A program made the position numbers and the translations under genes. Positions 494-64,000 of a DNA stretch of 64,000 bases are shown piece by piece; the stretch's first letter is position 1, and every line of letters starts with the position of its first letter. The notes beneath the pieces were generated by a model that did not search any database, had not been told where the DNA came from, and worked only from the letters and a program-made list of their open reading frames with translations. The stretch covers positions 1,497-65,496 of the forward strand of contig CAJPNN010000002.1 in the NCBI GenBank assembly GCA_905372035.1, written 5' to 3'. The stretch is from Bacillota bacterium. Its GTDB lineage: Bacteria; Bacillota; Clostridia; Peptostreptococcales; Anaerovoracaceae.

Positions 494-4039
<3,546 letters not shown>

Positions 4040-17006: not shown

Positions 17007-17131
17007 AAAAACACAAAAACAAAAGCAATATGCTCATTCTCCTAGTTTTATTTATAGACAGGATGGTTGCGAACTGTCTTATTGAATTATATTTGCTCTA
17101 TGATTATACGATAAAATTATGGAAAAAGCAA

Positions 17132-25986: not shown

Positions 25987-26142
25987 GTTTTTAAGCTCAT
26001 TATATATGTTATACAAAAAAAATTACGCTTATCTTGTGCACTTCCACTACACTACATTATTTATATATAAAAAACCTAAAGCGGGGACACCTTGTTACAT
26101 GCTATCTTCTTCTCCCGGTTTAAAAAGGCTTTTTATAGAACA

Positions 26143-26175
26143 AGCGGGGACACCTTATCGTATGGTGTCCCCGCT
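26143..26175 (-). terminator. 12-bp GC-rich hairpin 37 nt downstream of the giant gene stop. Probable terminator or insulator before argC.
   Basis: AGCGGGGACACC (26143-26154), 9-nt loop, GGTGTCCCCGCT (26164-26175). The only strong GC stem in an AT-rich spacer. The U-tract directly after it on the minus strand is poor (UUGUUCUAU). Confidence 0.55.
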
Positions 26176-26211
26176 TTATATCTGTACCTCTTTTACTTTA
26201 TAGTTGATACT

Positions 26212-29200
26212 TTATACATACTGAACCGGCTTTTTCCTGTTCACATCGTTAACATCTCTGTTATCTATTACGAACATCTTCTTGCCCATATGAGTAACAA
26301 GATATGTCAGATCTTTAAAGTCTACAACTCCGTCCTGGTTAAAGTCACAGTCAGCTCTATTCACTGTTACCGTTGCCGTAACCATAGCAGGCGCTCTGTT
26401 CATTCCTTCTCCGACAACTACTTTGGTGACTGAAATTGCAACTTTATCACCTTCGACTTCGACGGAAGCTTCAAGTTTATCAACTTTAGAAACATCATCA
26501 GTTTTTTCATCAAGTACATTTAAAGCATTTTCAGCAGTGACGTTGTCCGTGTCTGATTTAATATCAGTTGCAACAACACTTTCAAGTACTACCGACGTTC
26601 TTTCAATTCCGCCAATGCTTGTCGTCTTTATGATCGCTCCGGTGTCTTCGTCATAGGTTACGGTTACGGTATTCTGACCGTCCATGATCTTTCTGAACGC
26701 TTCCAGATCGGTTTCGTCTATAACATCTTTGCTGTCACCCGCATCTACAACATTTCCCGGCATCAAATCGAGCATTCCGAAGTCATACATAGCCTTAGCA
26801 AAAGTTCTTCCTATTTCGATATTGACGATCTTAAGCTTCAGATATCCCTTACGCTCTATTTCCATGCTGTAAGTTCCTTCCTGTCTAGGCTGTATCTCAA
26901 ATGCTCCGTCGGCTCCCACTTCATAATCCATAGCTATTCCGTCTTTTCCTGCAACAACCTGATTTCCTGAAGAATCAAATAACCTTATAACGGAACTTGC
27001 ATCCGGACCGTAAAGTCTAACCTTTCCTTTGATATACGTCTGTACGACAGCCTCCGATGCGGCAGTGTCTCTGATTACCGTAACTACATACTGACCCTTT
27101 CCGCCCGGATCACTTCCGGAAGCAGGCTTGTTTATTTCAAATATAAACTTGAACTCTTTTGTAGCAAGATCCAGATCAAACGCCTTTTTCATTTCTCTTA
27201 CCGACAATAACTTGTGTGCACTCTCTCCGTCTTTCTTCATAGAAAGATCCGCATCATCATTGCCCAGTATTGTAAATTCGATGTTTGTTTCAAGTGCTCC
27301 GACCTTTACCTTATAATCTCTCTTAAGCGGATCGAATCCCGGAATAAGTTTCTTGTAATCATCGTCAGGATCATCATCCGTAACGGAAATATCGGCCAGA
27401 TAAGCTGTATTCGCATATACTATCTCTACCATATACGTAGAAGGTGTAGTGCCTCCTCCTCCAACCGTCAGGAATACGAAGTTTCTCGTATCGTCTTCCG
27501 AAACAGGTACTTTTACAATCTTATTGTTCGAGTTTCCTGCGATATCCGTGCCGTTATAATTTACAACCACATTATCGGCAGGATTCTCCGCTACAGCCTT
27601 GAGATTTATCTCCTTCGTTCCTCTCTTGACGATTATCTTATGGTTCTTCGATTCAGGGTTGAATATGAAGTTTCCAATCTCTTCACCGTCGGTATAAGTA
27701 GGAACCAAGCTTTCAAGTCTTGCATTTCCGAACTTTCTCGCCTCTCTTGTAATCACGATCTCATAATTTCCGATCTTTCCTGTATTGTCAACAGCCTTCA
27801 GACGTATTACCGCTCTTGCATCATCATCTGCGAGGAAGTCTGCCGGAAGAACAAGATCCGGACTCTCAGCACCGCTTATTAACGGAATCTCTCTTCCGTC
27901 AGGAAGTACGGCACTTATTCTGTCGTCTGCGTTCTTTGCCGTTGCCGTGATCTTCACACTTCTATCCGTATAAGATATTACGGCTTCATATCTTCCTTTA
28001 CCTTCCGTGAACTTAGGTTTAAGTTCATATAATCCGTCTCCTTCCGCCGTTTCATCAGTCATTTTAAGATCCTGAAGTTCTATTTGAAGAATCGGCTCAT
28101 CGGTTCTCTCAACATGTAATCTGTAGTCTCCATGCTTTCCTTTTCCGTCATGGATTCTTACTACTACTTCAAAGTTCTTCCTATTGAGATTAAGACCTGT
28201 AAATGTTCTTGTATTTCCTCTTACGAAGTCTCCTCCGTCAATACTCATTTCGACATATCCGTCGCTGTATCCTATCTCGGAGTTTACGGTAAATTCTGTA
28301 GTATTGTTCGAAATCTTAACCGCATAATCTCTCAAAGTCTCCTTGAATTCAGGCTCCATAACGGCGTCTTGTACCCAGATCCTGTTCGCAATAGGAGAAT
28401 CGGTATTATAAACTTTCACATTATACTCGTTTATGTTTTCATAGCCGTTAGCGGAGAACTTCGTAATTCTGAACTTGAATACCGAGTAACCTTTTACCTT
28501 ATCTATGTTCTGTTCTATCATGCTTCCCAGATCTTCGACTACGGAATAAACTCCGTTTTCTTCGTTATAAAGCTCGATGAAACTGTTTTCGGTATCAGGT
28601 TCTGCAAACATATAAACCTTCTCACCGCCATTTGTTGCAGCATACTCGAACTTTTTCTTATCGAAGTTCGGTATCAGATCATTAGACGTAATCGTAGATC
28701 CGTCGTTGTTAAGCATTATCTTACTGATATACGGCTCAAACGGTTTATCCTTATCTTTATCAAGATAAAGAACATATACTTCTTCTGAAACCTTATCGCC
28801 TGATACCGCTCTTATATCAAATCTGTCTCTATCAGTATTTATCTTAACCGTGACAGCTTCTCCCGACTTGATCTTTTTGCCGTTTATGAAGTAATCCTTG
28901 CCGTCACCTGCTTGACCTACAGTAATCTTGGCACTTTCCGCACTTCTTGCAATTATTGCATTGCCTGCATTCTCCGTAGTTGCAAAGTCATATGTCGCAT
29001 TCTCTACCGCAATCTGATTTATGAGCTTTGTCTTAGGCTTATCCATCAGTGTCAACGAATACCTCTGTACCGAATTTCCGTTTGTAACGGTAACGATCGT
29101 CGTCTTCGTCTGTCTCGATGTAAAGTCTATAGTTCCCGCTCCGCTTATTTCCGCTCCGTCGGCTGCCGCACTTACCTTAAGCTCAACTGTGCTCATCGAC

Positions 29201-56200: not shown

Positions 56201-59200
56201 GATTCTTTATCATAAAGAACTATCTTAGCTTCTCCCGGTTTGTGGTAAGTCAACTTATGAAGCGAATCGTTCGATATCGAAACCACGTCAGGATTTGTAG
56301 ACGCAGCTCTTATCGCAACATCTCCTAAAGGTATGTCGTCACCGAACACATTGAATCCGGACGTTACCGTTGCATGAAGCTTGATACCTTCATCGCCTAC
56401 CTTAACGAGCAATCTGTTGTCAGGTATACCCGAAACAATCATGCGCCTTACGCCTGCCGTAGTAGGTTTGCTGTATGATTCGAAGCTTCCGTTACCTATC
56501 TGTCCGTTTGCTCCGAGTCCCCATACATATACATTTCCTTCTCTTGATATTGCTGCGGAGTTGGACGCCATATCACTCGTAGCCACATATATGGCCTTAT
56601 TGAAAGGTTTATCCTCTTCTTCCGCTTTTACCTTGCCGAACTCATATTTATGGGCATTGTCACCCGTTCCGAGCTGTCCGTACGCATTGTTTCCGGAAGA
56701 GTAGATATTTCCGAAGCTTGCCTTTGTCTCATCGTCAAATACATCGTTGCTTATAAGGGCGAGCGTACTCATTCCTCCGTCAAGCATAACGACGTCTTTA
56801 AGTGACATTGCCGTAGGCGCTACATTATAGGCCTGTCTTCCGAGCTGTCCTTCAACGCTTCTTCCCCAACCTATAACCTGATTATCGCTTGTTATGGCAA
56901 ATGCGCTTCCGTGACCTGACGCTATTGCAACGGCTTTCAGACCGTCTCCTATATTAACCGCCTGTATCGCCTCTCTCTTGGCTTCTCCATATTCGCCGTA
57001 ATCAGCTATACCCATAGCGTATACGGTACCGCTTGCAGAAAGCATATATGAAGTTCTTATCGTATTTGCGGATATCGCAATTATATCGGCTACAGGAATC
57101 TTAACAGGCAGAGTAAACTCTCCCGCACCGGTTTCCGAAATCTGTCTGCCGTTATTTATACCGAATCCGTAAACTTCATTTTTATCCGATAATGCCAGTG
57201 TGAATCCGTAACCTTCATATCCGCCGGCACTTACCTTAACTATCTTTATATTGTTATCCGTAAAGAATTTTACTTCTTCAGGTGTATCCAAATTCTTCTT
57301 AGGGTTTCCGTGACCGAGCTGACCGTAGTTGTCACATCCCCAGGTATATACTTTTCCGTCAGCCGTAGCCGCCACAACATAGTTGTGTCCTGCGGACAAG
57401 CTGACAACACCGTCCATAACCTTTTGAGGTGCGGTCTCTATGCCGCCCGTATATCCGAGACCGAGCTGACCGTAATCGTTAAGTCCCCATGAATATACTT
57501 CTCCGTTGGCTTTCAGCGCAACGGTAAACTCATGTCCCACATCCACGGACGGATAAGTTATGAATTTCTTGGTAACCGTCTTATCATCCGGAACAACGAG
57601 TACTTTTATAAATAACTCTTTAGTTTCTCCGCCGTCAGGTTTTATAGATATCTTTATAAATGTCTGTCCTACACCCGTTGCGGAAATTTCCCCGTCATTT
57701 TTCACGGTTGCAACCGCAGCGTTACGACTTTCGTAAGAAATGCTCACGTTAGGCTGTTGCATTTCTTTTATAACGTTGAACGTAGGGTTCACGGATGCAA
57801 GATCCGCCGCGGAGTATTTAGCGTCTTTTCTGAGCAATATCTCATGCTTAGCCGCACCTACAGACATCTCTCCGCCAACCTTCACAGCCGTATTCGTTTT
57901 ATCAACAATCTCGGAATTTCCGAGCTGAATATTTCTGTTTTCGCCGTAAGCCCACAGTGTACCGTCTTCCGCAATTGCAATTACATGCTTTCCACCCTTG
58001 GAAACCGCAGCACCTATCACTTTGCCCAGAGGTTTTCCGCTGTCTTTTGCCAATGCTTCAAACGTAACCGCCGCAGAAGTGGAATTTGCGAATTTTCCGT
58101 TTCCGAGCTGTCCGCTTGTTCCTTCTCCCGACATCAGAAGCTTACCGTTTTCATCTATCGTATAAACCGTATCACTTCCGCCCATGACTACGATATTGTC
58201 TCTTCCGGTCATAGTCTCAGGACGAGCGAGCACTCCATTTTTAGCCGACAACATATAGTTTGCGTTATTTCCGAAACCGTAGATCTTGCCTGTTATATCC
58301 TCGTTAGGTTTCTCATTGTTTTCAAGCATGTATGTTATCGCCATACCGTTCTTATCTGCGGCTCCGATTCCCATAGCGGAGTTTGTGAGAGGAACGGTTG
58401 TCGGATATGCTTCTCCCGTGTTTCCGATACCGTATTCATAGTTTCTGTTCGATCCCATAACGGCTACCGCACCGCTATTTTTGAGAACATATAAAGTATT
58501 TCCTTTTCCTACGGCGATATCTCTACCGTCCGTTATAGGAAGAAGTTTAGGAACCTTATACATAGTCTCATCGGATTTAGCCAACTGTTTATATGTATTG
58601 TCACCGAATGCATAAATCTTTCCGTCAGAAGCCAGCGCTACCGCAAAGCTGCTGTTTTCATCGCTTCCGCCCGCCTGTATCGCCACTATGTTTGATAAGA
58701 ACTCCGTTCCGCTTTCCTGTTCTCCCTTCAGAACTTTAACCGGAACATTGCTGTTATCGGTCTTATCCGTTCCTAACTGTCCTTTATGATTTCTTCCCCA
58801 TGACCATACGTTGCCGGATTTATCCAAAGCGAGCATAAACTCATGTGCCGCCGCAATCTTTATAATGTTTGACAGCCCCGACACTTTTTCAGGGTATGTG
58901 GTATTTCCGTTATAGCTTCCGTTTCCTAACTGTCCGTAGTCGTTGTTACCCCATATCCATACGGTTCCGTCCGCTCTTAACGCTGCCGAGAATTTATTTC
59001 CCAAAGCGACCTGAGGGAACGCCTTTGCCCCCGACGGAGCGACTTCAACCTTAATAGCCGCCGTAGACACGGAATCTCCTACAATATTTACTATTACATA
59101 AGTGGTTCCCACTCCTACAGCAGTTATTTTACCGCTTCTCGGATCCACTTTAACTATATCTTCTTTTCCGTTCCATGTCTGCCAGTTGAACTCGGCTTCC

Positions 59201-62200
59201 ACTCCCGTTCCCGTCGAAACGTCGAACAGATTGAACGAATCTTTAACAGGCTTATTAGGAGTTTCTTCTCCGCCTACGCTGAGCGAGTACAGATATTTAT
59301 CCATTGTGAGATAGGATTTTCCTACTCTCTCAGGTTCTCCTACGGTTTGAGTTCCTCCTATACCGAGTCTTCCCGCATAGTTGTTACCCGTTGCCCAAAG
59401 ACTTCCGTTTTCTTTTATGATAAACGTCGATGATATTCCGTCACCGAGTGAAACCGCCGTGCTGACAGCATCGTTAAACGGCGCTCCCTGCACATCGGAT
59501 TTACCCGCATGCATGTTCTTGACTTCATCGCTGTTTATCATTGTTTCGCCGAGACCCATAGGATATCTGTATCCCGCAGAACCCGTTACATAAACTTTAC
59601 CGTCGGTCTTGATCATCGTGGAATATCCGCGCGTCACGGTCCCCTGTATAGGGAAATTGCCTTCCGCATCTTTTGACAGAGCTTCTACTTTTGTAGGAAG
59701 GTTCAAAGTGGCGGCATTATTTCCGAGGCCTCCTTCTCCGTTCCATCCCCACATATATACTTCTCCGTCTATAGTAGTTACCATGCAGTTGTGCCATCCG
59801 AAGGTTGCAAAGATTACCTGCTTGTTGAGAACCGGAGCCACCGCTCTGTATCCGGAATCTACACCGTCACCTTTTGCGCCATAACCCGAATATCCCCAAA
59901 TTCTCAAGGATCCGTCATCAAGTACCGCTCCTGAATGGTGTGCAACGGTATCTGCTACCAGACTTCTTATCTTTCCTATAGTTCCGTTGTTCTTACTTAC
60001 ATTTACCGGTATTTTTATAATTGTATTTCCGCCTATGCTCGGATCGAGCGCCTGACAATAGTTCCTTCCGAAAGCATAGAGATTACCTTCTCTGTCCATA
60101 GCAAATGAAGTTGCGGCATAATCTCTATATCCGGCCGCTCCTATCTGAACTATGTTCTTAAGTCTCGAATCAGGGTTGTTTGAGCTGTAATCAACTCCTA
60201 CAACCTGCTTTGCAAGCGGTGCTACATTATTATCGCCCGATTTGTCATCACCTAAAGCTCCGATTCTTCCGTAACCCCAAGCGAACACTCTTCCGTATTT
60301 GTCGAGTGCCAAGCTGTGATCATATCCTGTCGCTATGCTTACAATATCCGTAAGCTTTATAGCATCCGTTCCTATAGTTCCGTTTCCGTTTTCATCACCT
60401 ATCTCAAGTCTCATAACCTGAACATGGAACTCGGAATTTCCGCCTACAGTTCCGTTTCCGAGCTGTCCTACGGAATTATCACCGAAGCTCCAAACGGTTC
60501 CGTCCGCCTTAAGCGCCAGTGTAAATGCATGCCCCGCTTTAACGACAGGGTTTGCAATAAAGTTGCTGTTCTTAGGTATTACATTTATTTTAATGTAGCC
60601 TACTCCGCCTTTTTCGGTATCTTTAACTACTATGTATGCAAGTCCTGTTCTGAGCAGACTGATTTTTCCGGTATTTTTATCCACCGTTGCGACTTTTTCA
60701 TTTAAGGAAGTGAATTCCAAGGTGTTAGGCGCATATCCCGAATCTCTCAAAACGTTAAACGCTTCATTCCCTAAAATTTTACTCTTATCTATATTAACCA
60801 CATCTCCGACCTGTAACGCCGAAACAACAGTATCATCTTTCAAGAGTACCGCTCCGTCATATATCCTTACAGTCTGAGATGTTCCGTCTCTGTCAAGTGT
60901 TGCAAACTTAATCTTAAGATGAGGGTTTCCGTTATTTAAAACTCTTACAGGCGTCAACCTCGAAGTTACGCTGCCGTCACCAAGCTGACCTGCGTCGTTA
61001 AGACCCCACGTAAATACATTACCGTTCATCTTTATAGCTGCAGCGTGATATCCCTGTCCCGACATGCCTAAAGACATAACAGCTCCGAGTTTTTCTTCTC
61101 CTGTTTCTCCTCCTGCAACTTCCATAGGAGTTCCCATAACGTCTCCGGTTTTACCTGTTCCCCATTCGCCGTTATGACCATAGCCCCATGAAAGTACTCT
61201 GTCCATCATCTTTTTCTCGGTAACTGCCGGAGTTCCCGGATCCGTTCCCGAGCCCGGTACCGCAGGGGTAACGATTACTTCGACCTCTCCGTACTGCCTT
61301 GCATATCCCGAGTCGGCTATTGTCGAAAGTTCGACAATCTTACTCAGCATCGTCTTTTCCGGAACAAGCGCGCTTCTGCTCTCAACCTTTCCGTTTGCAA
61401 GCATTCCGTTACCGTTCCAGCCCCATGCATATACGTCTCCGTCTTTATCGAGAGCCATTGCTCCGCTTTGCCAACCGCTCACCTGTACTATATTTTTAAG
61501 TGTCTTTTCTTCTCCTACACCCTTTACCATCATAGGCACATTGACATTAGATGCATGACCTATTCCCAAATGTCCCGAATCGTTATGTCCCCATCCGTAA
61601 AGTGTTCCCGTTTCCGTTATCGCATAACCTCTCGCAACGGCATATCCATGATTATTCAAGCCTGCCGCCGCAATGGAAACTATCTTATTTATGTGCTGCT
61701 TATGGGTATCTCCTCCTACAACCAAAACAGGCAGCTTGCTGTTTTCATTTGTTGCATTTCCGAGCTGACCATACGCATTTCCGCCCCAAGTGTATACTCT
61801 TCCGTCTTTTGCAAGAGCCATTGAGAATGTCGGACCTGCACGCACTTCCACTATATTTCTGAGAATGTCTTTGCCTGTAGGATCCTTAACCTGAACAGGT
61901 GACAAGATGACAGCTTCTCCGTCGTTTCCGACCTGCCCCAAAACGTTATCTCCCCATGACCAAATTGTTCCGTCATTTGAAAGTGCAAGTACATGTGCTC
62001 TTATACCGCTCCTGTTGGCTCCACCTGTCGAAATCATGATGATATTTCCAAGCGGTTTACCTCCGTTCATTACCTGAATCGGTGTAACGGAGTTGTCTTT
62101 CGTTCCGTTGCCGAGCTGACCTGTCGCATTATTGCCCCAAGTCCATACAGTTCCGTCCGCCTTTAACGCTACCGTATTATATCTTCCTACCGCAACCTGC

Positions 62201-64000
62201 GGAACTGCTACCGCACCTGCCGGTTTGATTCCGACTTTAATTATTTTAATAAAGTCCATACCGTCAGCAGAAACTATAATATTGGTTATTCCATATCTGC
62301 CGTTTGCATTAGGTGTAACCACACCGTTTTCATCGACCGTTGCAAGGCTCTTATCCGTGCACTCAAACTTAACCTTTGAAGTATCAAGGTTGTAGTCCGT
62401 CTTTTCCTTATAAAGATTAAATCCGTGTATAATCTCTGCGGTGATCTTTGATTTGTTTATCTCCAGTTTCTGATCCACCGCAATATATACATGTGAAGGA
62501 AGCGGATTGAACTTGTCATATTTTCCGCCCGTGATCGGTGTTCCGTCTTTTGTGATGTTGGCCCAGTCAGTTACAAACGTCTTGTCGGATATATGTCCAA
62601 CCTCCACAGGCTTCGTATTCGGAACAGTATTAGGTGACCCGTCACCAAGCTGACCATAGTTATTAAGTCCCCACATTACTACAGTTCCGTCAGGCCTTAC
62701 TCCCCCTGACACATGTGACCATGTAGCAGTATCAATTTGCACAAGTCCATCTAAACTATCCAATCCTTTTTTTATGGCAGTTGTCGCTGTTGCACCCGTT
62801 CCTGCCTGTCCATATGCACTATATCCGCCCCCATAAAACTTACCGTCTCTGCCTATCCCTGCTATCCATTGGGAGGCAGCTCCATTAGCATTTCCTAATG
62901 AAAACGCTTTCAATTCTGTCTGAAATTTAGATTTGATAGGTGTCGATATGTTCTGTTCACTATCTCCTGTAGGATGTACATTGTCATATCCCCAGATGTA
63001 TATGTTTCCTTTTTCTGTTAAAGCCCCAAATAAATTGTATCCAACAGGCTCAGAATCTGCAACACTTATATCTACTACTGTTTCTATATACTTCTTTGAT
63101 ACAGGTGAAATTTCATCTCCATCCTTTCCTTTTAGTACCTGTATAGGTGAAGATGATACACCTGTCAAGCCATCTCCTAAACTTCCATGTTGTAACTTTG
63201 AAATTCCAGATCCCCAAGTAAATACCGTACCATTCGATTTTAAGGCTATATCTGCACACATCGAAATTTCTACTTCTACTATATCTCCAAGCTGAGTTGT
63301 TCCTGCCTGTCCTCCCGCAACAGGTGTCGCTACATTTACATGTCCTTCTTTTCCTATCCCTAATCTGTAATAATCGTTATTTCCCCATGTCCATAGATTT
63401 CCATCTTTATCTATAGCAAATACTGCTCCCGGTCCTGAAAATACAGCAACAGCATCATTAAATGTGGCACCGCCTGCTTTTACTACACTATTTGTAGGCA
63501 CAAGCTTTTCTACATTTGTGCCGTCTCCTATTCTTCCATCTCCATTATATCCCCAGCACTTTACCGTTCCGTCGGAAAGCAGTGCTACACTCCCTATATC
63601 ATTTGCCGCTACATCTATTATGCCTTCAAGTCCTTCTACCTTAACAGGCGCTGTTGAGTTTACTTTTGTTCCGTTTCCTAACTGTCCATAGTTATTCAGT
63701 CCCCATGTCCATACTGTTCCGTCTGATTTTAATGCAACTGTATGATTTGATCCTATAGCTATCTTCGGCATCGCTACAGTTCCCGCCGGCTTTATCTTTA
63801 CCACTATCATTGTCTGCCAGCCGGATTCACTATCCTTTATTATTATCTTTGTACTTCCATATCTTTTATTATTATTTGGCTTTACTACTCCATCTCCATT
63901 AACTGTTGCTATAGATTCATCCATGGATTTAAACTCAAGACTTCCTACATTAACAGGGTCTGATATGGAAATCAAATTAAATCCACTACTCTTTTTTATC
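26212..64000 (-). CDS. giant modular extracellular protein, 5'-truncated by the window (more than 12,590 codons): (Big_2 + RCC1 propeller) x at least 11, about 60 cadherin-like beta-sandwich units, CarboxypepD_reg-like domain, dockerin-like C-terminus
   Basis: Stop-free frame 26215-63999. The ORF-track M at 63975 is a TTG inside a Big_2 domain. The 8 codons upstream (IKKSSGFN) are also open and match the FN(L/V/I)F/Y element that precedes Big_2 in other modules. Recurrent, divergent domain signatures run through the whole frame. Stop TAA at 26212-26214. Confidence 0.92.
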   Translation of the reverse strand, partial: IKKSSGFNLISISDPVNVGSLEFKSMDESIATVNGDGVVKPNNNKRYGSTKIIIKDSESGWQTMIVVKIKPAGTVAMPKIAIGSNHTVALKSDGTVWTWGLNNYGQLGNGTKVNSTAPVKVEGLEGIIDVAANDIGSVALLSDGTVKCWGYNGDGRIGDGTNVEKLVPTNSVVKAGGATFNDAVAVFSGPGAVFAIDKDGNLWTWGNNDYYRLGIGKEGHVNVATPVAGGQAGTTQLGDIVEVEISMCADIALKSNGTVFTWGSGISKLQHGSLGDGLTGVSSSPIQVLKGKDGDEISPVSKKYIETVVDISVADSEPVGYNLFGALTEKGNIYIWGYDNVHPTGDSEQNISTPIKSKFQTELKAFSLGNANGAASQWIAGIGRDGKFYGGGYSAYGQAGTGATATTAIKKGLDSLDGLVQIDTATWSHVSGGVRPDGTVVMWGLNNYGQLGDGSPNTVPNTKPVEVGHISDKTFVTDWANITKDGTPITGGKYDKFNPLPSHVYIAVDQKLEINKSKITAEIIHGFNLYKEKTDYNLDTSKVKFECTDKSLATVDENGVVTPNANGRYGITNIIVSADGMDFIKIIKVGIKPAGAVAVPQVAVGRYNTVALKADGTVWTWGNNATGQLGNGTKDNSVTPIQVMNGGKPLGNIIMISTGGANRSGIRAHVLALSNDGTIWSWGDNVLGQVGNDGEAVILSPVQVKDPTGKDILRNIVEVRAGPTFSMALAKDGRVYTWGGNAYGQLGNATNENSKLPVLVVGGDTHKQHINKIVSIAAAGLNNHGYAVARGYAITETGTLYGWGHNDSGHLGIGHASNVNVPMMVKGVGEEKTLKNIVQVSGWQSGAMALDKDGDVYAWGWNGNGMLANGKVESRSALVPEKTMLSKIVELSTIADSGYARQYGEVEVIVTPAVPGSGTDPGTPAVTEKKMMDRVLSWGYGHNGEWGTGKTGDVMGTPMEVAGGETGEEKLGAVMSLGMSGQGYHAAAIKMNGNVFTWGLNDAGQLGDGSVTSRLTPVRVLNNGNPHLKIKFATLDRDGTSQTVRIYDGAVLLKDDTVVSALQVGDVVNIDKSKILGNEAFNVLRDSGYAPNTLEFTSLNEKVATVDKNTGKISLLRTGLAYIVVKDTEKGGVGYIKINVIPKNSNFIANPVVKAGHAFTLALKADGTVWSFGDNSVGQLGNGTVGGNSEFHVQVMRLEIGDENGNGTIGTDAIKLTDIVSIATGYDHSLALDKYGRVFAWGYGRIGALGDDKSGDNNVAPLAKQVVGVDYSSNNPDSRLKNIVQIGAAGYRDYAATSFAMDREGNLYAFGRNYCQALDPSIGGNTIIKIPVNVSKNNGTIGKIRSLVADTVAHHSGAVLDDGSLRIWGYSGYGAKGDGVDSGYRAVAPVLNKQVIFATFGWHNCMVTTIDGEVYMWGWNGEGGLGNNAATLNLPTKVEALSKDAEGNFPIQGTVTRGYSTMIKTDGKVYVTGSAGYRYPMGLGETMINSDEVKNMHAGKSDVQGAPFNDAVSTAVSLGDGISSTFIIKENGSLWATGNNYAGRLGIGGTQTVGEPERVGKSYLTMDKYLYSLSVGGEETPNKPVKDSFNLFDVSTGTGVEAEFNWQTWNGKEDIVKVDPRSGKITAVGVGTTYVIVNIVGDSVSTAAIKVEVAPSGAKAFPQVALGNKFSAALRADGTVWIWGNNDYGQLGNGSYNGNTTYPEKVSGLSNIIKIAAAHEFMLALDKSGNVWSWGRNHKGQLGTDKTDNSNVPVKVLKGEQESGTEFLSNIVAIQAGGSDENSSFAVALASDGKIYAFGDNTYKQLAKSDETMYKVPKLLPITDGRDIAVGKGNTLYVLKNSGAVAVMGSNRNYEYGIGNTGEAYPTTVPLTNSAMGIGAADKNGMAITYMLENNEKPNEDITGKIYGFGNNANYMLSAKNGVLARPETMTGRDNIVVMGGSDTVYTIDENGKLLMSGEGTSGQLGNGKFANSTSAAVTFEALAKDSGKPLGKVIGAAVSKGGKHVIAIAEDGTLWAYGENRNIQLGNSEIVDKTNTAVKVGGEMSVGAAKHEILLRKDAKYSAADLASVNPTFNVIKEMQQPNVSISYESRNAAVATVKNDGEISATGVGQTFIKISIKPDGGETKELFIKVLVVPDDKTVTKKFITYPSVDVGHEFTVALKANGEVYSWGLNDYGQLGLGYTGGIETAPQKVMDGVVSLSAGHNYVVAATADGKVYTWGCDNYGQLGHGNPKKNLDTPEEVKFFTDNNIKIVKVSAGGYEGYGFTLALSDKNEVYGFGINNGRQISETGAGEFTLPVKIPVADIIAISANTIRTSYMLSASGTVYAMGIADYGEYGEAKREAIQAVNIGDGLKAVAIASGHGSAFAITSDNQVIGWGRSVEGQLGRQAYNVAPTAMSLKDVVMLDGGMSTLALISNDVFDDETKASFGNIYSSGNNAYGQLGTGDNAHKYEFGKVKAEEEDKPFNKAIYVATSDMASNSAAISREGNVYVWGLGANGQIGNGSFESYSKPTTAGVRRMIVSGIPDNRLLVKVGDEGIKLHATVTSGFNVFGDDIPLGDVAIRAASTNPDVVSISNDSLHKLTYHKPGEAKIVLYDKESGLYGICQIKVLPADLNIENPVFPKTVAGGSFGMALKADGTVWTWGNNEYGQLGINDESKKEVLSPVQVVMSNGQPLKDVKDIAAGDYFALALLKDGTVYAWGYNDGNGALGQGTGARYNQHAPVQVKGVGGTGFLGDEKTGKIVSISADYYSAVAVTEKGTAYAWGGNDYYKLGTLSGGVMYTPTKVAGVNNAFEAYPNRYRMSILNKDATVLGAGYNNYGELSTGEQSTKSRVQLAQKGKNQGPIKGVSHVAVGEHHTVLNVYEFDKELPPGEDPSKQFKNRVLSSGYNAEGAIGNGKYDYYNLYAVPVRTPDNKADLTGIASVAATVRGSFALAHDGTIWSWGQNDQGQLGNTVVGGNYSLAAKVLKDNITGEPIKNIMYVTSASTGRYALAINELGGVFSWGANNLGQLGDGTVGGNQTYPTVVGSVPLKISKKLIRVKPNESDKVTVENDGKPFFVFGEIAQSSSISWRVLNSRIASINAGNNGEVTVTGLKNGETSVIAKDNVTGKTISCKIIVSDGFTNPQVVGGKDFTVALKADGTVWTWGLNRAGQLGIANSTPQAVLPQKVTKYESKYQGEIFEFKNIIKIAAGTDFALALDADGNVYSWGLNSYGQLGYSNYYYGSRNMPIKITAISSIVDIKAGDSFALALDADGRVYSWGRNTHGQLGLNTIDGSQHPTPELVKGKGGSGVVRGAVEIAASYRSGALVLGDGSVWSFGDNSKGQLGDGSTSSYSATIVGVKNIKNANKLVGGAMNMAAVLDDGNAVIWGDNSSSQVNNVNAAGMDVCNTPYLIEDATHAAMKNIDNIAIGGSDAGDSQIIVTDMDGNIYTWGSALNGKLGDGVLANRATPVKISVPKDTGAKVGGIGAGNAHSLAILENGDVYAWGANTSGQLGDETMVQNIYPVKVGGDYIDLDKYHITIKVGDNDLKDITGRYNLFFNVYKDVDSTASISARSLDESVVRVENGKLVPVAAGKTKVVVSAKGKNAICEVTVLGADAGTVKYLASPDVASGEGFTVILRANGTVYAWGKNDVGQLGDGSTENRIFPMNIVFGNDPDTYITKIKAGRSHVLALDNKGHVWSWGLNDKGQLGRSGDQSKPAMISGVDDIEFAELGTGETSSYAVDNNGNVYAFGNEIGGSGTSFGGTPILLSLLNRTVSISGGYALKSDETVWVVPADIKETVVLRKSDLANITELSSSNNHTLALDEDGALWTFGNSDYGQLGDGEKKGRNNARKITEANDNTALPSLKRISAGYRYSLALSKDGKVYAWGLNDKGQVGNENVYSETLKPAQVSTYPNVGADKIEKIAAGYGHSVTSKVDGYVWSFGWNNYSQLGNEDTDDSYVPVIAGKNSISAVPNSIKLPVDANNDVDIKDMITVSESESINLLKDGKKLGAYVINSKNSDVLKTNGADTKVRALKEGVAILEVTSATSSAKGYLTVVVTGKTAYPMIAVGNTHTVALKADGTLWTWGNNSNGQLGHDAAGGAIKEVVISAGGSQPIKEIIKYIAAGKNATYAVSESGKVYSFGDNTYGQLGAGIEDRKVTGIQKVVTDGHEFGADIRVSKISAFDNSVMLLTEDGKVYVFGEAFGNRNKASRFNYTDNIRDISRNYALTAGGDVWTLTNNAVPKKLMGFKDQNKQRVPIIKIAAGKDHLLALDVNGRVWSYGKGYYGQLGNGDWHDVWTPKLIDSISDVKDIAAGDYTSAAILSDGKVYTWGINSNGQLGTGNTDSRYVPTKNRNEKSNISIFAGYRNIASVEGNGTVWMSGANEEGQIGDSTRIDRNEPVIVGGSEVTILDETDTPLYGTIYLRKGDQKKLKGAFGLFNLLNNETAAQEFNYKSSNMSVATVEMNTGQMAAVKEGVSYINVTEAAYTHKEAYIKVVVLPEKVPAGTTFRPDAVTKAGHSVAVKYDGTLWAWGINNSGQLGTGNTDNCDEPVNVTPSGVKFKAVAAGGMHSLALDSEGNVWFTGTVKGRVTNSFTKIAGLKDIIEISAGNEFNLALDKRGNVYSWGDNSRGQLGISDNLVYLEEPALVPINSVTAISAGNEHSLFLRSTGEVYAAGNYENARLGVEGASTYIYRPAKVSKVSSAVAISAGGAHSAVVTFREDLITFGKNDKGQLGREGSSSTPSKVDTLTYISEVSAGEDYTVAMNRDGEAYVSGANNYGQLGVGDKLNKSAFIRNTKFTDDNIVLTSVSAGTGYSVAVDNAGNVYGFGDYSQGADLEFNETLSDVPVRIGERKQLIKESEILLRVGEQYLVKTFSGNDFNIFGDVVSNNTKAEFTIGNMEVAIVDPLGNITARNPGVAKLIVEKGGMKSRCIVRVIPEEFKAMPMVAAGNAHVLAIRADGTVWSWGGNAYGQLGLGNNVLGNKSEPTEIIALRGKKIVSVAAGEFHSLAIDADGRVYVWGSNQRGQTGLDSLENAIYTPTMLPNISNVRKILGGRDHSVILTGGGDIYTFGDNSHGQLGTGSMKDFERVPVRVKSINKIIDISFGAGGNCNIVLRYDGTVWAWGANNNKQISSEEHSNQSYRSPIRINMGQFEGQISRVYNGLSHSLALLNDGRVIAWGDNARGQLGTGDKNPVIGPTLVKDLGGVLDLDVGATHNIALTEEGDVYAWGDGDYGRLGVGRANGETGYSQTKPIKVTYFNRNAIFIAAGGAASYVLKNDGYLYSFGVNDKGQLGNGESGESGEFTNVEDSYKYSPVLVSGKQMKIMPESFRIAAGGTENVEFTASRFNMFRDIEPNATEYKWEITDEKDVHGANAGTGNIARFFNDPNTGQIDNKKLLGVKEGTALLTITDKVSGYVAKAEIQVVNPDLIRPDKIIMEHVVAKDLAVNDAVTKGFLDSDEYEKTVLPNGNIIYNLKGIKGIYGVQVMVEGDKSVIRVKSKVNTDDITLQDKNGTPIGNKSKNSTPGDKYKGYFEFTDVPVSKIREMFYIRIHNAGIPDGPDDHDETDNINYYDGIYKLVATILSEDVSLKALKIDTSQSGIDYMADHTKFKDGSITSIKNAIQIGNTNQYFTVVDDATQNLKIYVYGEGGFASTISVNNKKVNADHDEAHKHPKNFDVQTVTLNENDKMVTVPINITADNNKSMSYLLTIYKKKAATAIKEITATSKGVANGKTYRAVMTDDLHYDVYLPEDVKSVDITTIGELSEAQVQYKAAAPNRDLDYSKVVNGVYPDFVLADKSGTDTAVVQLKAGGNEGLQYTLRIHRLSKAEDPMVYVNANYVKKEKMPGVQGIYRYKVDKTADSARVMVTTATYGSYIKIGDTAPSLNASIQNIRVNFGPDGTQDIDIHVIPDGESANDGNRYILRLYNEDSDNRLGEVKADEIIKATGAAGEEFKAVYDYEKDAYIVKVKGKVEKIRLNANPMARGALIALDKNEDTAKNAAGAPSATVEEELLQNEITYFATVTPKVHDSVTGVYAKATYKIIVIRQSSNVDLDVKFGEHKLNLDADESTYDFLLPRSADGSDNTVRTLTAETKDKFAAVTISDSKTFEIANGAGNKAEMKDVKANEPEATVKYIHVRAQDGTTKTFTVKIKKLSKDKTIINDGVIVQTTSGKQIAKYDANTSTYRVKVPYDKEGAWIKVIPNNKDAYIRVGDEGDYKKPEEDTLVTGEAPSVVYKNFTLVDPATGAKETVTKISVKSPDGIDPVKEYNLIIEAASSDTSIYTIREISNVKYAGKPVKAPEGVSEYDYYLGVDQEDINNGATVQIEVVATSPSATVTINDGIANGTVPADFVNENTDPSETNRALKTIKLMNDQPVVRIKVVSEEGVATKIYKLRIVPKSNDNTIDPNGYVKLVRINDMDRPVGYNTAKGAYVVSVAEGTSKLPIRIKANSPFAKVAVDRFANPLGSDGALYSDNNEIMLPGYDISGTDLNKGLEIPFYVKAENGAIRTYKIIVQTAARDTAVTKVELIIDGVAREAVVNKLNPLEYNIVVGRDVSKADIRVTPNSYEVHEILIGGAYDSIDNITGARTRNNYPMELGNEFTVPISVTASDKLTKEDGYKLIIKKVDLNMDLASVKVDETSLTKGAKDTYTYIANTNVLNSKANITLISVKPESTVKLERMIPAKGKSPVEYSYEEIGKAVKGGGVWDDVSLDTKSDINRFRVTVTAEDGYTSKTYYLVIRTKSENTEIDYIKVGQYYAKPTNDNSKWEVKIPNTTKFAAFTIKTYDELASILKLNGSGYEQGIYSDVITDMDLQTANKVLTFEIKSQSGNTKRTITLTIIGDETAPAIKKITVNGDKAKDPTVSETNYIYDTVLPNASELLVGAEGTLINYYVEIDGGDRKLSKNEKKVYMPVSESEKEIGVKLYKEATDSNSAVAAGLILKRLAQDYGIILTVDGKAPTAKNDGSYEAYVDAKASHAGIKAIASNNNYIVTIDGYSDKDGSPASVNNKANTGQAAELNTYLYRALESKETTVNITVKKSDDDKTPAKYRLVLRMKSNNTAVKEVIANIGTSYENKDTTESLETHNGKPYGIYNVFIPVDKADPNKLIYTELLSVRPEDKTSEVSIDGGDFSSVDADGVYTKRVVLTNKTFDANNDGTPDTFIVPMKVKSQSGDIKEYKIYVTVSDLDLGLTSVKVNSTVIKPDSKGNYVAYVDNGAVSADVLLQATENALPEIRSLDGNIVAPNGGSNLLVVRGFDISKLDPNNPDGLKFNIRLKAKDSAYERIVPLIFKAKSGSTKITVEVNGRKAVWNTATNTFEGYLSYEEKQANIQAVAEDDFAKVGIETNPPVDVKVTSKLINVDGDSAVVKIYVTAQNGTPATVNGKGWYTLNLTRRSGDNGILKIFETTTNVPAMEKQDPVTGDKVYSFYFGDDNKDFGLTVVPASKATLRVGYYDKAGAWIGSDWTSQHDSTFAGNINADENKGKYSVEVRAENGDIKAYSLNMLRKKGDVSLKSIVTNRGEVSHFNVKMDKDIQYDSYVPEKNVKIEIRPNDENAKILSVRRVVAPNDDAEYTDVLKAAEWDNDTAPDGTRNFILKGGVKLGIVEYYRIEIESHSGVIGKRYLLLRGMSDDISVHRVKVNNVLGTDVINEGKEYIFKVDNSLNKLPVEFVANSRAYITYVNGVKVTVPAGDWNNNGEDYKLSIGEQTAIGFRVDAEMYVDAERTPNAFRDYSVKIFKNSNNTALTGVTVNGGTAKARSNNPTIYEISIPSKVDANDLLSSNPAKIRINTQNGFADIVMLENEQPTSEKAKGELNVTRELGDPESNPVNIFRFRVISSSGNAQQDYTLYVYRDLEKIGIKSLHVDGKKIEEKNGIFAAQVEIGKPVDISIEPVGALSKITLWGNGISENAPKIGTGLSIFENLPINAVGDTEYRFKVAASDGSAESEVKRIIISVSQGADTGIQSVEFAGKKAKISDWDKSTYIVNVPPETLTGLLKIKANNAQSKILFEGINSIDGVLTASCHCAGNVTELIFNVTARDGKTKKDYKLLIVKGISTIKNVKVNGNDALKQGDKYYYQVKPNASAADVTLTASSTAAKVKIAGNAEKIHEDTVSVKLNSVGETVVPLVVSTYPFTDDMKVNASLIITKQDNRLNLSSVLFKPESQNSAREVEKDSKGDYYTLMPAADTKGQLTVVANSSDVNLKLYKVGNPDAIADGAESIDVALSNLTDPVNKYKIVASRGTDTAVYDLTMAKRNSDAEIVKVIGQKGLPDETVANKVSSTDPDKNTKYVLYVRDDLKDLALYIKSSNEKAKISLEGVSDSQVGEFNADVSLPLDQKEIKKVITVVATDNTKKNYDLVISRENRVARLDEVAVNDTVIEYKNGAYTAYLDESAYPTMENATAKVVIKAPAGTVKLYKDNNELVSKSGISNVWSDDALQIDALKIDEYRIVVTSGNGQSSASYKLIIRTPDYQTGLDYVKVDAGAGETELKKDASNTYNMIISNSSDHIKISAGALNKNAILKINRVDNDTYKQTINSLAISTMIKDIYIPIDVTDPDLKVTRYTVKLTRKNLDDSIKTLKVDDSENLVNTKKVETINGKEHDVYTYILKDAVSDFSTPVITNIYAETANAFAKITGGMDTAPDPVEQDLNVWSVNKFRLADKEVTVFEIKTKSEDSKEIKVSYLRVYKKTSNTELESIKAYYKENGKETSQAAQVKDGEYHVWVPSTASLVDIEAISKSLMAGVKVGSHVTYKEHQDKLTDVPMAANEFVIDISVRATDGTIAAHKLHVHKADVSLKNLIIYNALQGNQDAEYRDGAYHVDILPQDNVSVTANTTLRDMYVRIGVLKKPASTDSSYAEYLRKASNYANDDPDIVWLEWVKATNTYQVLPLNTEDASTTMVKVQVGVPNDLANPHEPTLGDDGVIGTVATYNLFIKQKSNNNKLIPVVDDVAIKESIPKLEADGHVYNNFYFGVPSSHANTVRFKILKDALGVDEPVVSLMNNVPDQSGTVYINNDFAHDTYVELAINAPAQVAEDTEDSVFELTARSKTGQVAYYRVHIYRQSQNTDIDYGESTVNKEYRKKTVVDEHITDIFETPETALDQVDLDGKPLAGKYALVYLKTVAPKAKIVFKGKTYVGATDDPNDRVKGILVPIKEGEKHLDIPYTVISEDESSEGRKVSDNILHIDVSSVNNNIEFIEIRGVNTTRAVQSGEDVDGFTGEKITVYKGFVSSEDYRLSVEKNIKTYVTAQAQTHTEKTVVRLADENGELEPGIVNPSPQLAYRSSYSYDTKDANSENPVTVSMSVTSETGVRKLYRLDIYRTVDDNRKVKNVWVAPAGKLDSASPASFDPAENMYVAEIGNDIRTIEIKVKADHEYAGVDINGKNEYEVGEKTLLINNLKPGQSYDFHFKVRSQDEMATGKSEGKDYVVRVKRISENRKILKVELKNSNGEVVETIRKVDHVNKRIDIDVPYASQIVPVNIIADDPGAVLSMSLPHGDFTAQSKLEVNLPFDKDEFANGPKAYSVQVKSTPNDTTPATYNIVLHRKTSELKVKEVKLNGRLAKVNPNNHYEFSIDIGSGELKGNLSATTLAEGEFIQLVSGSRPFVKNTDTYEDLSFDDILVGNEREFSINVGSKDSNSVTGDPDQIKETKLKIRRLKPEEIRSDLQLVFNVAETKNGTYKRASFKNTTKEVIDGEERTVDNYQKFVNPVVKYAYIKTQTNFGDSKIDISQDGAVLGSGNGEADATAFMSSDNIVLPVKVTAKDGATMNYKLFIEKASNNIALKIVEAKAQVAGTMMLTPVTATPVKMNEYVAEMPMGSEAATFRVVTEDPDTIIQLYDEDMKTLTGESVKGELRFGQKIGMLTDKSEYVLKIKVISKTGGAEQDYYLRAVSIPDGTEIKDMFVKGVDDPVERFKSAAVTGLTTYFASVPNKDAAHPAEKATVKIVPKNPEAVISIEGVANPDGKGEYITEVALTSSLVTEVNVVVQAPSGAKSQYKLYLSKYTYDYELIVRVNNEITERAGNTYIRRNALPFNVNSANVEVTVADREKGYQLSINGGALQKITVDRPIATAKVPLSGGVLTNFPVKVYDAAGQFIKEYTVSVKKDQEDNNLGVIYVDGHKAVKYGTADGRVKYEAYSYGSPKHNGTDKGTANVEIYAVNKNSMIEMVRVKEAGGADNEWRGIDPSTGRLKATVGGLERKKDDNPMPPETNRFNITITAGSSSYYELYIHYVPADVFLDGLQVTKKGSSVPAPFKNGVYKKDILEYEVELNEDVNEFDISAWALETKKAVDAYFTSLGLDAANYPTKIKIGDAEPLGNGVEVLQKDSGEHVSAHVKVSNDYTRIPVYLMVPNFVKTYYVVIHKTSSDATLRELSVKDHNIEPEFKPEVKGYTLDVESYNKEAVIHARANHDHVGAGTRVTLLGFRNGVDKYQIGSELVEINEKVSLAYGSNNFEIRVTSENGTVETYKLTIYRKPIDVDLKDVLVNGNNAAYVGNNTFRAYVVPGSKAEIKVRGNDPRAVATLNNGVISNPGDYAVMEMDTKNIPGNVNEVAVKVAVTDGSVVVEKNYKLEVVEADGDILSVYMDAGDGTFDPSSPVNSALKYANPISATWNSAENRFEIGIPYLKLSPKIRITTMKEGKQVKVGVGSYKNPDTGTEKRFTGGILIDASKNESLVKIVVKDKASGIEKPYDLLIKRLSNEAELSDLDVGSETKIKPDFDPKNKVYEMTVEKDSVKFNKIAAKHPKATIKIRDNTSVNSFGNTTEFTLKNLKPGINIMEIEVTSEDKTVTNIYKVRVNFKLPAKASLLKDLRVYTGEKEKDRRYHHLVPMFDKNIQTYYMPISSKLNEKTDPVFVEATPIDQQYQLFYKKIVNGEQADSGNGSLVLIDKQLHANDEVRVVFSVQYKGTSSGVPLAEYTVIFGKDKESNLNPDTDWLTSISLEKTELTRDFSEGIKDGNYFATVENNVTKDKLTAVVGDVGASVVTKLYKLENDRKTWTLQNNINSGIPTEITFDVGDNVYLIEALVNADAGEKPTIKKYYSLTINRKAEEKTDFVVGDPLLKSITTNVASISPLFDSNITSYNLSVTNKVEELALTIEAKDDKAVISVRSEAWDYDEEGLGFIKTNGIRLVSGNNRIVITCEVQGAKKVYVLNINKAVEPYTAELVDLKHDKRGTLAPIFNSDISNYYITYPADAQDIWFTPIMRAPDSGHVEVYVDGTKVMDVNSGDVFNYKNVKFGESVVKFRVVVDKNGTKVTRDYVVTVFRNKTDDPVAEGINIEAFNKAGTRYELTPPFKENVNSYYLNVPNSEDSVDIKVTLPNSVGSTVLINKANAGAGNKYTVPLNTVGDHEIIVEVKDNNGNNKWYTIIVNRSDVEKPGTVKLDDLKVKQAKYKLTPLFASDIKYYEVKVDADTNFINLIPYSGSNITINNMPVLSGAQSQNLELNYGETFIDVVLKGTAAMGTQNTKVHYIVKVIRPTEDHNAKLVNLSVDKGTMAPVFRTDQSSYYVTVPYGVKTIGVLPTALEAKNVVKINGQVFSGTDYMQVDISGTTNKNLRIEVFEDSNATVASSTYTLSVSRRDLSGKNVDLKGFELSNVELTTVFNTREINYYAYVPESMSTVELKVSAAADGAEISGAGTIDFTSRQTKTTIVTVTNGNSVQRYSLTLMDKPKTKLINQIAVENATYDFATTENAGNAIIARSAESAKITVGQAGDGKDYFINGKKIKSGEAVTVKINTDRDRFDIRAVSGDKVSEEVYVLYLDKDKDKPFEPYISKIMLNNDGSTITSNDLIPNFDKKKFEYAATNGGEKVYMFAEPDTENSFIELYNEENGVYSVVEDLGSMIEQNIDKVKGYSVFKFRITKFSANGYENINEYNVKVYNTDSPIANRIWVQDAVMEPEFKETLRDYAVKISNNTTEFTVNSEIGYSDGYVEMSIDGGDFVRGNTRTFTGLNLNRKNFEVVVRIHDGKGKHGDYRLHVERTDEPILQIELQDLKMTDETAEGDGLYELKPKFTEGKGRYEAVISYTDRSVKITATAKNADDRISAVLPDGREIPLISGAESPDLVLPADFLADDDARAVIRLKAVDNTGKIGNYEIVITREARKFGNARLESLVPTYTDGEEIGNFIFNPESKNHKIIVKRGTKEINLKAVAENPADNVVVNYNGTDIAGNSNNKIVKVPVSEDDTRNFVFLTVGGGGTTPSTYMVEIVYANTAYLADISVTDDDPDDDYKKLIPGFDPLKRDYKVKVGALETNIEFTILGNDDADLSMKKDGESAHKLLSVREMKKAFDLDLATKEFKFIFEINKPASGSDPGGKGQYVVTVIRDTAASEAVVQTYIKGKVRLYGPDASSVIRLFDSSGNQVVAGKDGIAMDYEVGADGAFEIQPRQEGTYSMEIERKGYLKLKIVNIEIGRTFAKAMYDFGMLDLMPGNVVDAGDSKDVIDETDLEAFRKIMDGQNTVTVTYDEDTGAIIKTTSIGGIERTSVVLESVVATDIKSDTDNVTAENALNVLDEKTDDVSKVDKLEASVEVEGDKVAISVTKVVVGEGMNRAPAMVTATVTVNRADCDFNQDGVVDFKDLTYLVTHMGKKMFVIDNRDVNDVNRKKPVQYV
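26311..26346 (-). other. dockerin / EF-hand-like Ca-binding segment 2 of the giant protein
   Basis: DFNQDGVVDFKD followed by LTYLVTHMGKK matches the D-x-N-x-D-G-x-(I/V)-x-x-x-D + helix pattern of dockerin repeats. It starts 44 aa from the C-terminus. Confidence 0.5.
26677..26760 (-). other. dockerin / EF-hand-like Ca-binding segment 1 of the giant protein
   Basis: PGNVVDAGDSKDVIDETDLEAFRKIMDG. An Asp-rich loop followed by an amphipathic helix, as in a dockerin repeat, but with a longer loop. Confidence 0.35.
26809..27033 (-). other. CarboxypepD_reg-like / Cna-B-like small beta-sandwich near the C-terminus of the giant protein
   Basis: IKGKVRLYGPDASSVIRLFDSSGNQVVAGKDGIAMDYEVGADGAFEIQPRQEGTYSMEIERKGYLKLKIVNIEIG fits the I.G.V...a.V.l.d.sG......t...G.F.i.....G.Y.l.i...Gy pattern. 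Confidence 0.5.
27075..47760 (-). repeat. array of about 60 divergent cadherin-like beta-sandwich units (PF12733-like), 100-125 aa each
   Basis: I counted about 61 unit-closing strands of the form Y-x-[LIV]-x-[LIVF]-x-[RK] by eye (YTLRIHR, YKLRIVPK, YKLTIYRK, YSLTINRK, YVVTVIRD and others). C-terminal units carry the canonical L-x-x-L-x-V...L-x-P-x-F...Y-x-x-x-V opening, for example LRELSVKDHNIEPEFKPEVKGYTLDV. Confidence 0.75.
47760..64000 (-). repeat. tandem array of at least 11 modules, each one Big_2 Ig-like domain followed by an RCC1-type multi-blade beta-propeller
   Basis: Each module has (S/T)xxxxVATVDxxGxV...G Big_2 text, then a first blade such as HTVALKADGTVWTWGxNxxGQLGxG, then further blades with GxNxxGQLG. 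First blades lie at about 63770, 62210, 60560, 59020, 57560, 56140, 54630, 53180, 51855, 50515 and 49215. The period is about 1300-1650 nt. A terminal Big_2 lies at about 47760-48090. Confidence 0.85.

Follow-up and report, generated by a model that had tools for sequence, protein, structure and literature searches.

A 14,725-residue protein from an uncultured member of the Anaerovoracaceae with RCC1-like propellers, a Cadherin-like stalk and an X-module-dockerin-like terminus, a putative giant fibre or adhesin

The stretch of DNA analysed here (64,000 nt, 41.7% GC; hereafter the window) comes from contig CAJPNN010000002.1 of GenBank assembly GCA_905372035.1, and more than half of it is taken up by a single gene that runs on the minus strand and extends past base 64000. 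The frame contains 12,595 uninterrupted sense codons (26215-63999), which are followed by a stop at 26212-26214. The runner-up open frame in the window has 1,181 codons, and the remaining two frames of the minus strand contain 945 and 1,142 stops. From the base composition, a run of 12,595 codons without a stop has a probability of about 1e-378. Amino acids (aa) are numbered over the window part of the protein, with aa 1 at the right edge. The listing of open reading frames places the gene at 26212..63975 with a TTG start; this TTG, the ninth codon of the open frame, falls within the first Big_2-like linker (aa 6-71). A preliminary description of the window, made from the letters alone, had claimed that no stop interrupts this frame, that the listed TTG lies in the middle of a Big_2 domain with the frame open to the edge, and that so long a run could not be due to chance. 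All three claims were reproduced on recomputation. The window part of the protein contains only 17 cysteines.

The N-terminal portion of this sequence is an array of propellers, for which the RCC1-like families PF00415, PF13540 and PF25390 were used with the Pfam gathering score as cut-off. Over aa 1-4400, Pfam matches reached 1755 bits for WD40_RLD, 1124 bits for RCC1 and 974 bits for RCC1_2 (E = 0), and further RCC1-type matches extend to aa 5295. A locally built hidden Markov model (HMM) of the blade found seven blades in nine of the ten modules delimited by Big_2-like domains and 12 in the other, a double module at aa 3536-4424, which is best read as two propellers and brings the predicted total in the window to 11. 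Big_2-like immunoglobulin (Ig) domains of about 65 aa precede 10 of the 11 propellers. The module period is 440-555 aa, and the ten Big_2-like linkers are spaced 441-888 aa apart. Pfam recognized Big_2 (PF02368, E 1.7e-12) with 47.5 bits at aa 3040-3116 and with 26.1 bits in the piece 49915-51414, the cutoff being 22.8 bits. The remaining copies are below the Pfam threshold, and a linker HMM trained on the protein's own sequence recovered all ten with E values of 1e-18 to 1e-26. In the transition segment that follows the array, Pfam identified no family except a trailing RCC1 blade.

The stalk consists of tandem Cadherin-like beta-sandwich domains. Pfam Cadherin-like scored 270 bits over aa 8401-12595 (E 7e-82; cutoff 24.2 bits) and was above cutoff in 13 of the 14 500-aa pieces into which aa 5196-12195 were divided. 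An iterated local HMM placed 48 copies with confidence, one about every 110 aa, and about 12 more domain-sized gaps in the stalk match the same model weakly, which would bring the stalk to about 60 very divergent beta-sandwich domains. The copies are less than 30% identical to one another. The domain periodicity that had been claimed for the whole frame is thus borne out by 75 RCC1 blades and by the regular spacing of the Cadherin-like domains. Across the 12,595 aa, Pfam returned no catalytic family and no match to cohesin (PF00963) or a carbohydrate-binding module (CBM). Similarly, no LPxT[GAS] sortase motif is present over this length, and no 19-residue window has a mean Kyte-Doolittle hydropathy above 1.6, as would be expected of a transmembrane segment. 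Anchoring by sortase was rejected because there is no LPXTG motif. The earlier claim that no catalytic domain is present holds for the window part, and relatives of the protein do carry a catalytic M23 peptidase.

Judged by profile comparison, the C-terminus, represented by the last 276 aa, is homologous to type-II X-module-dockerin (XDoc) dyads. When the C-terminus alone was searched against PDB with phmmer, chains 4wi0_B and 4u3s_B ranked at the top (E 0.006), matching in two colinear pieces that correspond to the beta-sandwich segment and to the calcium-loop-plus-helix segment. These two chains are the XDoc of Acetivibrio cellulolyticus ScaA bound to the ScaB cohesin. A profile of nine modules, from the giant protein and eight relatives, matched 4wi0_B/4u3s_B with an E value of 5e-14 and covered both the X module and the dockerin; the same profile matched 2b59_B (CipA) at 1.3e-9, 3kcp_A at 4e-9, 5g5d_B at 9e-9 and 5k39_B (CipB) at 1e-7. 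An XDoc HMM built from the relatives matches the giant protein only at aa 12354-12572. In contrast, phmmer with the C-terminal 296 aa gave no match among 146 representative proteins, so the homology to the relatives' XDoc is visible by profile only. After in silico removal of the insert between the two dockerin repeats (Table 1), Dockerin_1 scored 22.4 bits against a cutoff of 22.9. The protein terminates 20 aa past the second repeat. In the AlphaFold2 (AF2) model of this region only the X module was moderately confident, with a predicted local distance difference test score (pLDDT) of 65-80, and it was all beta. Foldseek with this low-confidence model returned 4u3s_B second and 4wi0_B fifth, a ranking that is weak corroboration only because the model is poor. 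Among the families named in the preliminary description, RCC1, Big_2 and Cadherin-like were found by Pfam, whereas CarboxypepD_reg remained sub-threshold. Its dockerin-like terminus stands as XDoc homology detected by profile, but the native sequence stays below the Pfam threshold.

Table 1. Features of the giant gene and its surroundings in the window
Feature	Protein position (aa)	Window coordinates	Strand	Basis or remark
Giant gene, C-terminal 12,595 codons plus stop		26212..63999	-	About 1,363 kDa in the window, isoelectric point 5.4; extends past base 64000
Head array	1-5295	48115..63999	-	11 predicted seven-bladed RCC1-like propellers, 75 blades; Pfam and local HMMs
Big_2-like domains (starts)	6, 526, 1080, 1588, 2073, 2548, 3057, 3536, 4424, 4865		-
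Transition segment, about 315 aa	5296-5610	47170..48114	-	One more Big_2-like stretch, then about 200 aa without a family match
Stalk, tandem Cadherin-like beta-sandwich domains (PF12733)	5611-12310	27070..47169	-	Pfam, iterative local HMM, self-BLAST
X-module-like beta-sandwich, CarboxypepD_reg-like	12320-12405	26785..27042	-	Pfam E 0.009-0.016 (sub-threshold), PDB phmmer, family profile
First dockerin repeat, degenerate (GNVVDAGDSKDVIDETDLEAFRKIMD)		26680..26784	-	Relatives' alignment and family XDoc HMM
Insert of about 107 aa between dockerin repeats		26359..26679	-	No family match
Second dockerin repeat, canonical calcium-binding loop DFNQDGVVDFKD plus helix		26275..26358	-
Perfect 13-bp GC-rich hairpin		26142..26176	-	About 38 nt past the stop codon; weak T tail

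Several observations bear on the reality of a gene of this length. In a self-comparison of the protein in 150-aa tiles, internal matches did not exceed about 50% identity, and the C-terminal 7,300 aa are almost without internal BLAST matches. The longest DNA repeats in the gene are 30-98 nt long with 60-86% identity, and all of them represent the RCC1 blade motif. The gene is therefore repetitive at the level of protein domains only. Because the DNA repeats are short and divergent, a short-read assembler is not expected to have collapsed or invented sequence, and assembly collapse or expansion was rejected in the absence of long repeats.

The locus was also found in other public assemblies. 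At least 22 contigs from ENA, Logan, JGI and NCBI (38 index blocks) encode an identical product of the neighbouring argC gene, and the host species recurs in many public samples. Six loci of the same species were compared and are 99.4-99.5% identical to the window, which indicates other strains rather than the same assembly. The tail of the giant gene is intact and adjoins argC in all six. Over the shared 5.2-9.7 kb, the ratio of nonsynonymous to synonymous polymorphism (pN/pS) against the window is 0.055-0.118; the differences are overwhelmingly synonymous and the reading frame is thus under purifying selection. On a 131,678-bp contig (ENA ERZ26867812 NODE_60) the gene is wholly internal and was called at 14,725 aa, and a contig in Logan carries 12,151 aa of open frame up to its end. 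By comparison with the ENA call, the window would hold the C-terminal 85% of the protein, with about 2,130 N-terminal aa (about 6.4 kb) lying beyond base 64000. The preliminary description had placed the true N-terminus beyond that base and had taken the frame for one real gene; the enclosing contig agrees with the former, and the short, divergent repeats, the intact tails and the low pN/pS agree with the latter. This is a single real functional gene in one reading frame.

Searches directed at the two ends of the window part were less informative. The exact 58-mer at the right end of the window was absent from the genome and metagenome contigs searched. With aa 1-600 as query, the same contigs returned only generic RCC1 proteins of 26-35% identity. 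A search for homologous proteins with the N-terminal query likewise gave only generic RCC1 proteins, none of the matches listed being longer than about 1,400 aa, and with the C-terminal 440 aa it gave one identical fragment of 342 aa. In addition, contig ends of three independent assemblies cluster within 150 bp in the giant gene, two of them (L004 and L006) at window position 31417 and one (L003) at 31565. No DNA repeat of 30 nt or longer was found at 31417-31565, and the clustered ends may reflect variation in domain number among strains.

A search of protein representatives did not return the giant protein itself, the longest match listed being 7,235 aa, and identified eight cluster representatives of 4,687-7,235 aa with the same layout (P0155, P0170, P0177, P0187, P0197, P0205, P0214 and P0288). 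Local HMMs give their domain order as a Big_2/RCC1 array, 12-22 Cadherin-like domains, a beta-sandwich X module and a dockerin. The relatives thus have in common with the giant protein the order [Big_2 + seven-bladed RCC1 propeller]n, [Cadherin-like]n, X module, dockerin, but they are half its size and have far fewer Cadherin-like domains than the 48 found in it by the same HMM. In the tail of P0155, CarboxypepD_reg (3.5e-4), Dockerin_1 (8e-7; 29.6 bits, above cutoff) and Peptidase_M23 (3e-25) were all detected. Peptidase_M23, with HxxxD and HxH intact, is found at the C-terminus of seven of the eight relatives; P0170 and the giant protein are without it. The two dockerin repeats are separated by about 107 aa in the giant protein and by about 60 aa in P0187, and the spacer is short, about 12 aa, in P0155 and the other relatives. 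Because this length varies among the relatives, the split dockerin of the giant protein represents the extreme of a family trait and not an oddity. The X module and the canonical second calcium loop have been kept across a family whose members are less than 50% identical. Complete N-termini are available for six relatives, and in each of them a basic stretch is followed by 17-20 hydrophobic residues and a small-x-A motif; read by eye, these N-termini are Sec signal-peptide-like.

Three further loci with RCC1-type genes were noted. At L167 (10001-24064), a separate gene for a 1,140-aa RCC1/Big_2 protein lies about 300 bp upstream of the P0288 gene, and a stop or frameshift has probably divided a single gene into these two. 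At L026 (1-18949), from a goat-duodenum Clostridia metagenome-assembled genome (MAG) in GTDB, a 6,316-aa RCC1 frame with nine Big_2 linkers is open throughout; this giant RCC1 protein is about 40% identical to P0154. At L050 (1-11687), on a 173-kb contig of an Oscillospiraceae GTDB MAG, a 3,895-aa RCC1 frame is open across the whole locus.

The rest of the window encodes housekeeping functions, namely PFOR, rnfCDGEAB, a NusG-II protein, argF, rlmL, mreB, queF, queT, carAB and argDBJC. These neighbours are ordinary for an anaerobic Firmicute and show that the giant gene lies in a core part of the chromosome rather than on a mobile element. CarB is 81% identical to that of Sinanaerobacter chloroacetimidivorans, 79% to that of Anaerovorax odorimutans and 74-77% to those of Anaerovoracaceae MAGs, and on the basis of these relatives the host belongs to the Anaerovoracaceae (Peptostreptococcales, Clostridia). 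The accessions of the samples had no match in the literature searched. The perfect hairpin that follows the stop codon is probably the terminator of the giant gene. A scan for consensus terminators called nothing at 26069-26176. On the minus strand of this region, a second copy of the 3' arm of the hairpin, GGTGTCCCCGC, occurs at 26091-26081 and is followed by a T-run, so that one 5' arm has two alternative pairings. A 156-nt fold around the hairpin has a z score of -5.2. A promoter-like site, TTGATT-16-TATAAT, is present upstream of argC. With the hairpin after its stop and this site before argC, the giant gene looks like a transcription unit of its own.

Elsewhere in the window, a complete rnfCDGEAB operon adjoins the PFOR gene (494-12087), and argF and the arg/car cluster lie downstream of the giant gene. 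Immediately upstream of queT (16287-16838, minus strand) and queF, the minus strand carries a sub-threshold match to the PreQ1 riboswitch (RF00522) at 17036-17082; when 501 nt were searched, it scored 25.2 bits (gathering threshold 39) with an E value of 0.0055. A scan of the whole window with Rfam at gathering thresholds gave no match.

The product of the gene is very probably secreted and non-enzymatic, a giant fibre or adhesin. A more detailed model was built by analogy with CipA, ScaA and Gram-positive surface proteins, and its combination of Sec export, XDoc-cohesin anchoring at the C-terminus, a stalk and distal propeller heads is given a probability of roughly 0.6. According to this model, a protein of some 14,700 residues (about 1.6 MDa) would be exported by Sec with its N-terminus first, by means of a signal peptide that the relatives lead one to expect beyond the window. 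The C-terminal X module and dockerin would be the last to exit and, by homology with CipA and ScaA, would dock on the cohesin of a wall-bound partner. The roughly 60 Cadherin-like domains would form a stalk of roughly 240 nm, if a generic 4 nm per Ig-like domain is assumed. This stalk would hold at least 11, and in the full protein probably about 15, RCC1-type propellers on Big_2 domains away from the cell, where they could serve as putative multivalent binding heads for candidate ligands such as a partner cell, a host surface or a polymer. A fibre or adhesin had been proposed in the preliminary description, and the proposal fits the architecture and gains strength from the identification of the C-terminus as an anchoring dyad of the XDoc type.

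Several points weigh against this model. Pfam Dockerin_1 has no match on the native C-terminus, and both AF2 models of that region were poor, with a pLDDT of 42 from the single sequence and of 51 with the eight relatives. The first calcium loop of the dockerin is degenerate and its repeats lie about 107 aa apart, and cohesin binding may accordingly be absent. The window contains no cohesin gene, the neighbours being housekeeping genes. The apparently active M23 peptidase in seven of the eight relatives hints at a role at the cell wall beyond simple adhesion. The N-terminus of P0177 carries a DUF1565/pectate-lyase-like beta-helix. Finally, the 2,130 or so N-terminal aa of the giant protein that lie beyond the window could hold a catalytic or membrane-anchoring domain.

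The atypical dockerin, with its degenerate first repeat, its long insert and its score below the Pfam cutoff, would also suit a protein that is released from the cell. Such a protein would act as a giant matrix or biofilm scaffold, its dockerin either cross-linking it to secreted cohesin proteins or being a non-functional relic. The lack of a cohesin or SLH gene nearby within the window is in line with release, as is the lack of a transmembrane segment and of LPXTG in the window part. However, the X module and the canonical second calcium loop are conserved in a family of such low overall identity, and the C-terminal 9.7 kb, XDoc included, is under strong purifying selection. Release is therefore considered unlikely.

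The polarity of the protein could also be the reverse. An uncleaved N-terminal signal-anchor would then keep it attached, and the XDoc, together with M23 in the relatives, would be the distal working end; such a family would dock onto or cut the walls of other cells, and the giant protein would be the version that lost its peptidase. The intact HxxxD and HxH motifs of the relatives' terminal M23 domains are in keeping with this arrangement, their N-terminal hydrophobic stretch could serve as the anchor, and giant proteins have been connected with cell-wall degradation (West-Roberts et al., 2023; bioRxiv 10.1101/2023.11.21.568195). On the other side, the small-x-A motif that follows the hydrophobic stretch in all six complete N-termini, as read by eye, is typical of cleavage by signal peptidase, and the giant protein has no M23 domain. 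A C-terminal anchor with N-terminal heads is moreover the usual design of Gram-positive surface proteins, which also counts against a reversed orientation. In addition, characterized XDocs all anchor their bearer to the producer's own surface, and it is through type-II cohesins that they tie cellulosomes to the cell (PMC5141474). Reversed polarity is hence also regarded as unlikely, and C-terminal anchoring with distal heads is retained as the preferred model.

A cellulosome-like scaffoldin that organizes enzymes would share the C-terminal XDoc with CipA and ScaA, and it is rated very improbable because no cohesin was matched across the 12,595 aa. Neither was a CBM, and propellers and Cadherin-like domains are not known as docking sites for enzymes. 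Sinanaerobacter and Anaerovorax, the nearest named relatives of the host, are not known to be cellulolytic, which likewise speaks against a scaffoldin. It is scarcely credible that the frame is an artefact of assembly or a chimera, or that it represents a pseudogene in decay or more than one gene: the source assemblies are all short-read metagenomes and three of them break inside the gene at 31417-31565, but the improbability of the stop-free run, the lack of long repeats, the low pN/pS, the agreement of independent assemblies (a 14,725-aa call in ENA and a frame open for at least 12,151 aa in Logan) and a coherent domain order common to eight relatives all argue against it.

Few proteins have more than 10,000 residues, and hardly any of these have been characterized; an example that is robust to assembly and constrained by selection provides a useful reference case. 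It also offers a testable hypothesis of anchoring, by an XDoc-cohesin pair outside any cellulosome, and it defines a small family that joins RCC1 propeller arrays, Cadherin-like stalks, dockerins and M23 peptidases. The cohesin-dockerin system is known almost only from polysaccharide-degrading complexes. If the model is correct, its role would widen from the organization of enzymes to the mounting of giant adhesins, and the contacts of uncultured Anaerovoracaceae with partners or surfaces would become more accessible to study. A bolder and rather doubtful extension is that cohesin-dockerin pairs mount megadalton propeller fibres on non-cellulolytic, amino-acid-fermenting Peptostreptococcales, that the M23-bearing family is a long-reach apparatus for engaging other cells, and that the giant protein is its largest, peptidase-free adhesive derivative. 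Such an apparatus might serve for attachment to syntrophic partners or for attack on the walls of competitors.

Among adhesins, the RTX proteins MpIBP, LapA and SiiE and the staphylococcal Ebh resemble the giant protein in its proposed design, in which tens of Ig-like spacers project binding modules over hundreds of nanometres from the cell. These adhesins and the giant protein are alike acidic and poor in cysteine. They differ in the means of export and retention, the former relying on a type I secretion system with an outer-membrane retention module or on a C-terminal transmembrane segment. In contrast to the RTX adhesins, the giant protein is without RTX repeats, and its putative binding heads are RCC1 propellers.

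The XDocs of cellulosomal primary scaffoldins, CipA and CipB of C. thermocellum and ScaA of A. cellulolyticus (PDB 2b59, 3kcp, 4u3s, 4wi0, 5g5d and 5k39), are similar in that an X module followed by a two-repeat dockerin ends a huge, non-catalytic, repeat-built protein. Unlike the cellulosomal scaffoldins, the giant protein is without cohesins or a CBM, and its dockerin is split by the insert of about 107 aa and has a degenerate first loop.

The closest precedent in size comes from metagenomic surveys, in which 'large' denotes proteins of 10,000 aa or more and 'giant' those of 30,000 aa or more (West-Roberts et al., 2023; bioRxiv 10.1101/2023.11.21.568195). The same study described RCC1-type giant genes of Oscillospiraceae from gut metagenomes, which have no transmembrane anchor and are predicted to be extracellular, and other proteins of 10,000-30,000 aa in Clostridia, some of them with dockerin repeats. 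The claim that proteins of more than 10,000 aa are very few thus stands as regards their rarity, but such proteins, including RCC1-type ones from Clostridia, are already documented there. The protein described here resembles the RCC1 type in belonging to the class Clostridia, in being very long, purely repetitive and rich in RCC1 propellers, in having no transmembrane anchor in the part examined, and in its predicted extracellular location. The RCC1 type, in contrast, is found in Oscillospiraceae, reaches at least 30,000 aa and is made of a single repeating domain, whereas the present protein is from Anaerovoracaceae, has 14,725 aa and is bipartite. Membership of that type was rejected, since family, size and layout all differ, and the protein fits instead the looser 'large' category of 10,000-30,000 aa in Clostridia. 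A Cadherin-like stalk, an XDoc terminus and an M23-bearing sister family are not mentioned in that study, which never uses the word cadherin (bioRxiv 10.1101/2023.11.21.568195). The giant protein therefore belongs to a broad and already described kind, to which its stalk, its XDoc end and its M23-bearing sister family are additions.

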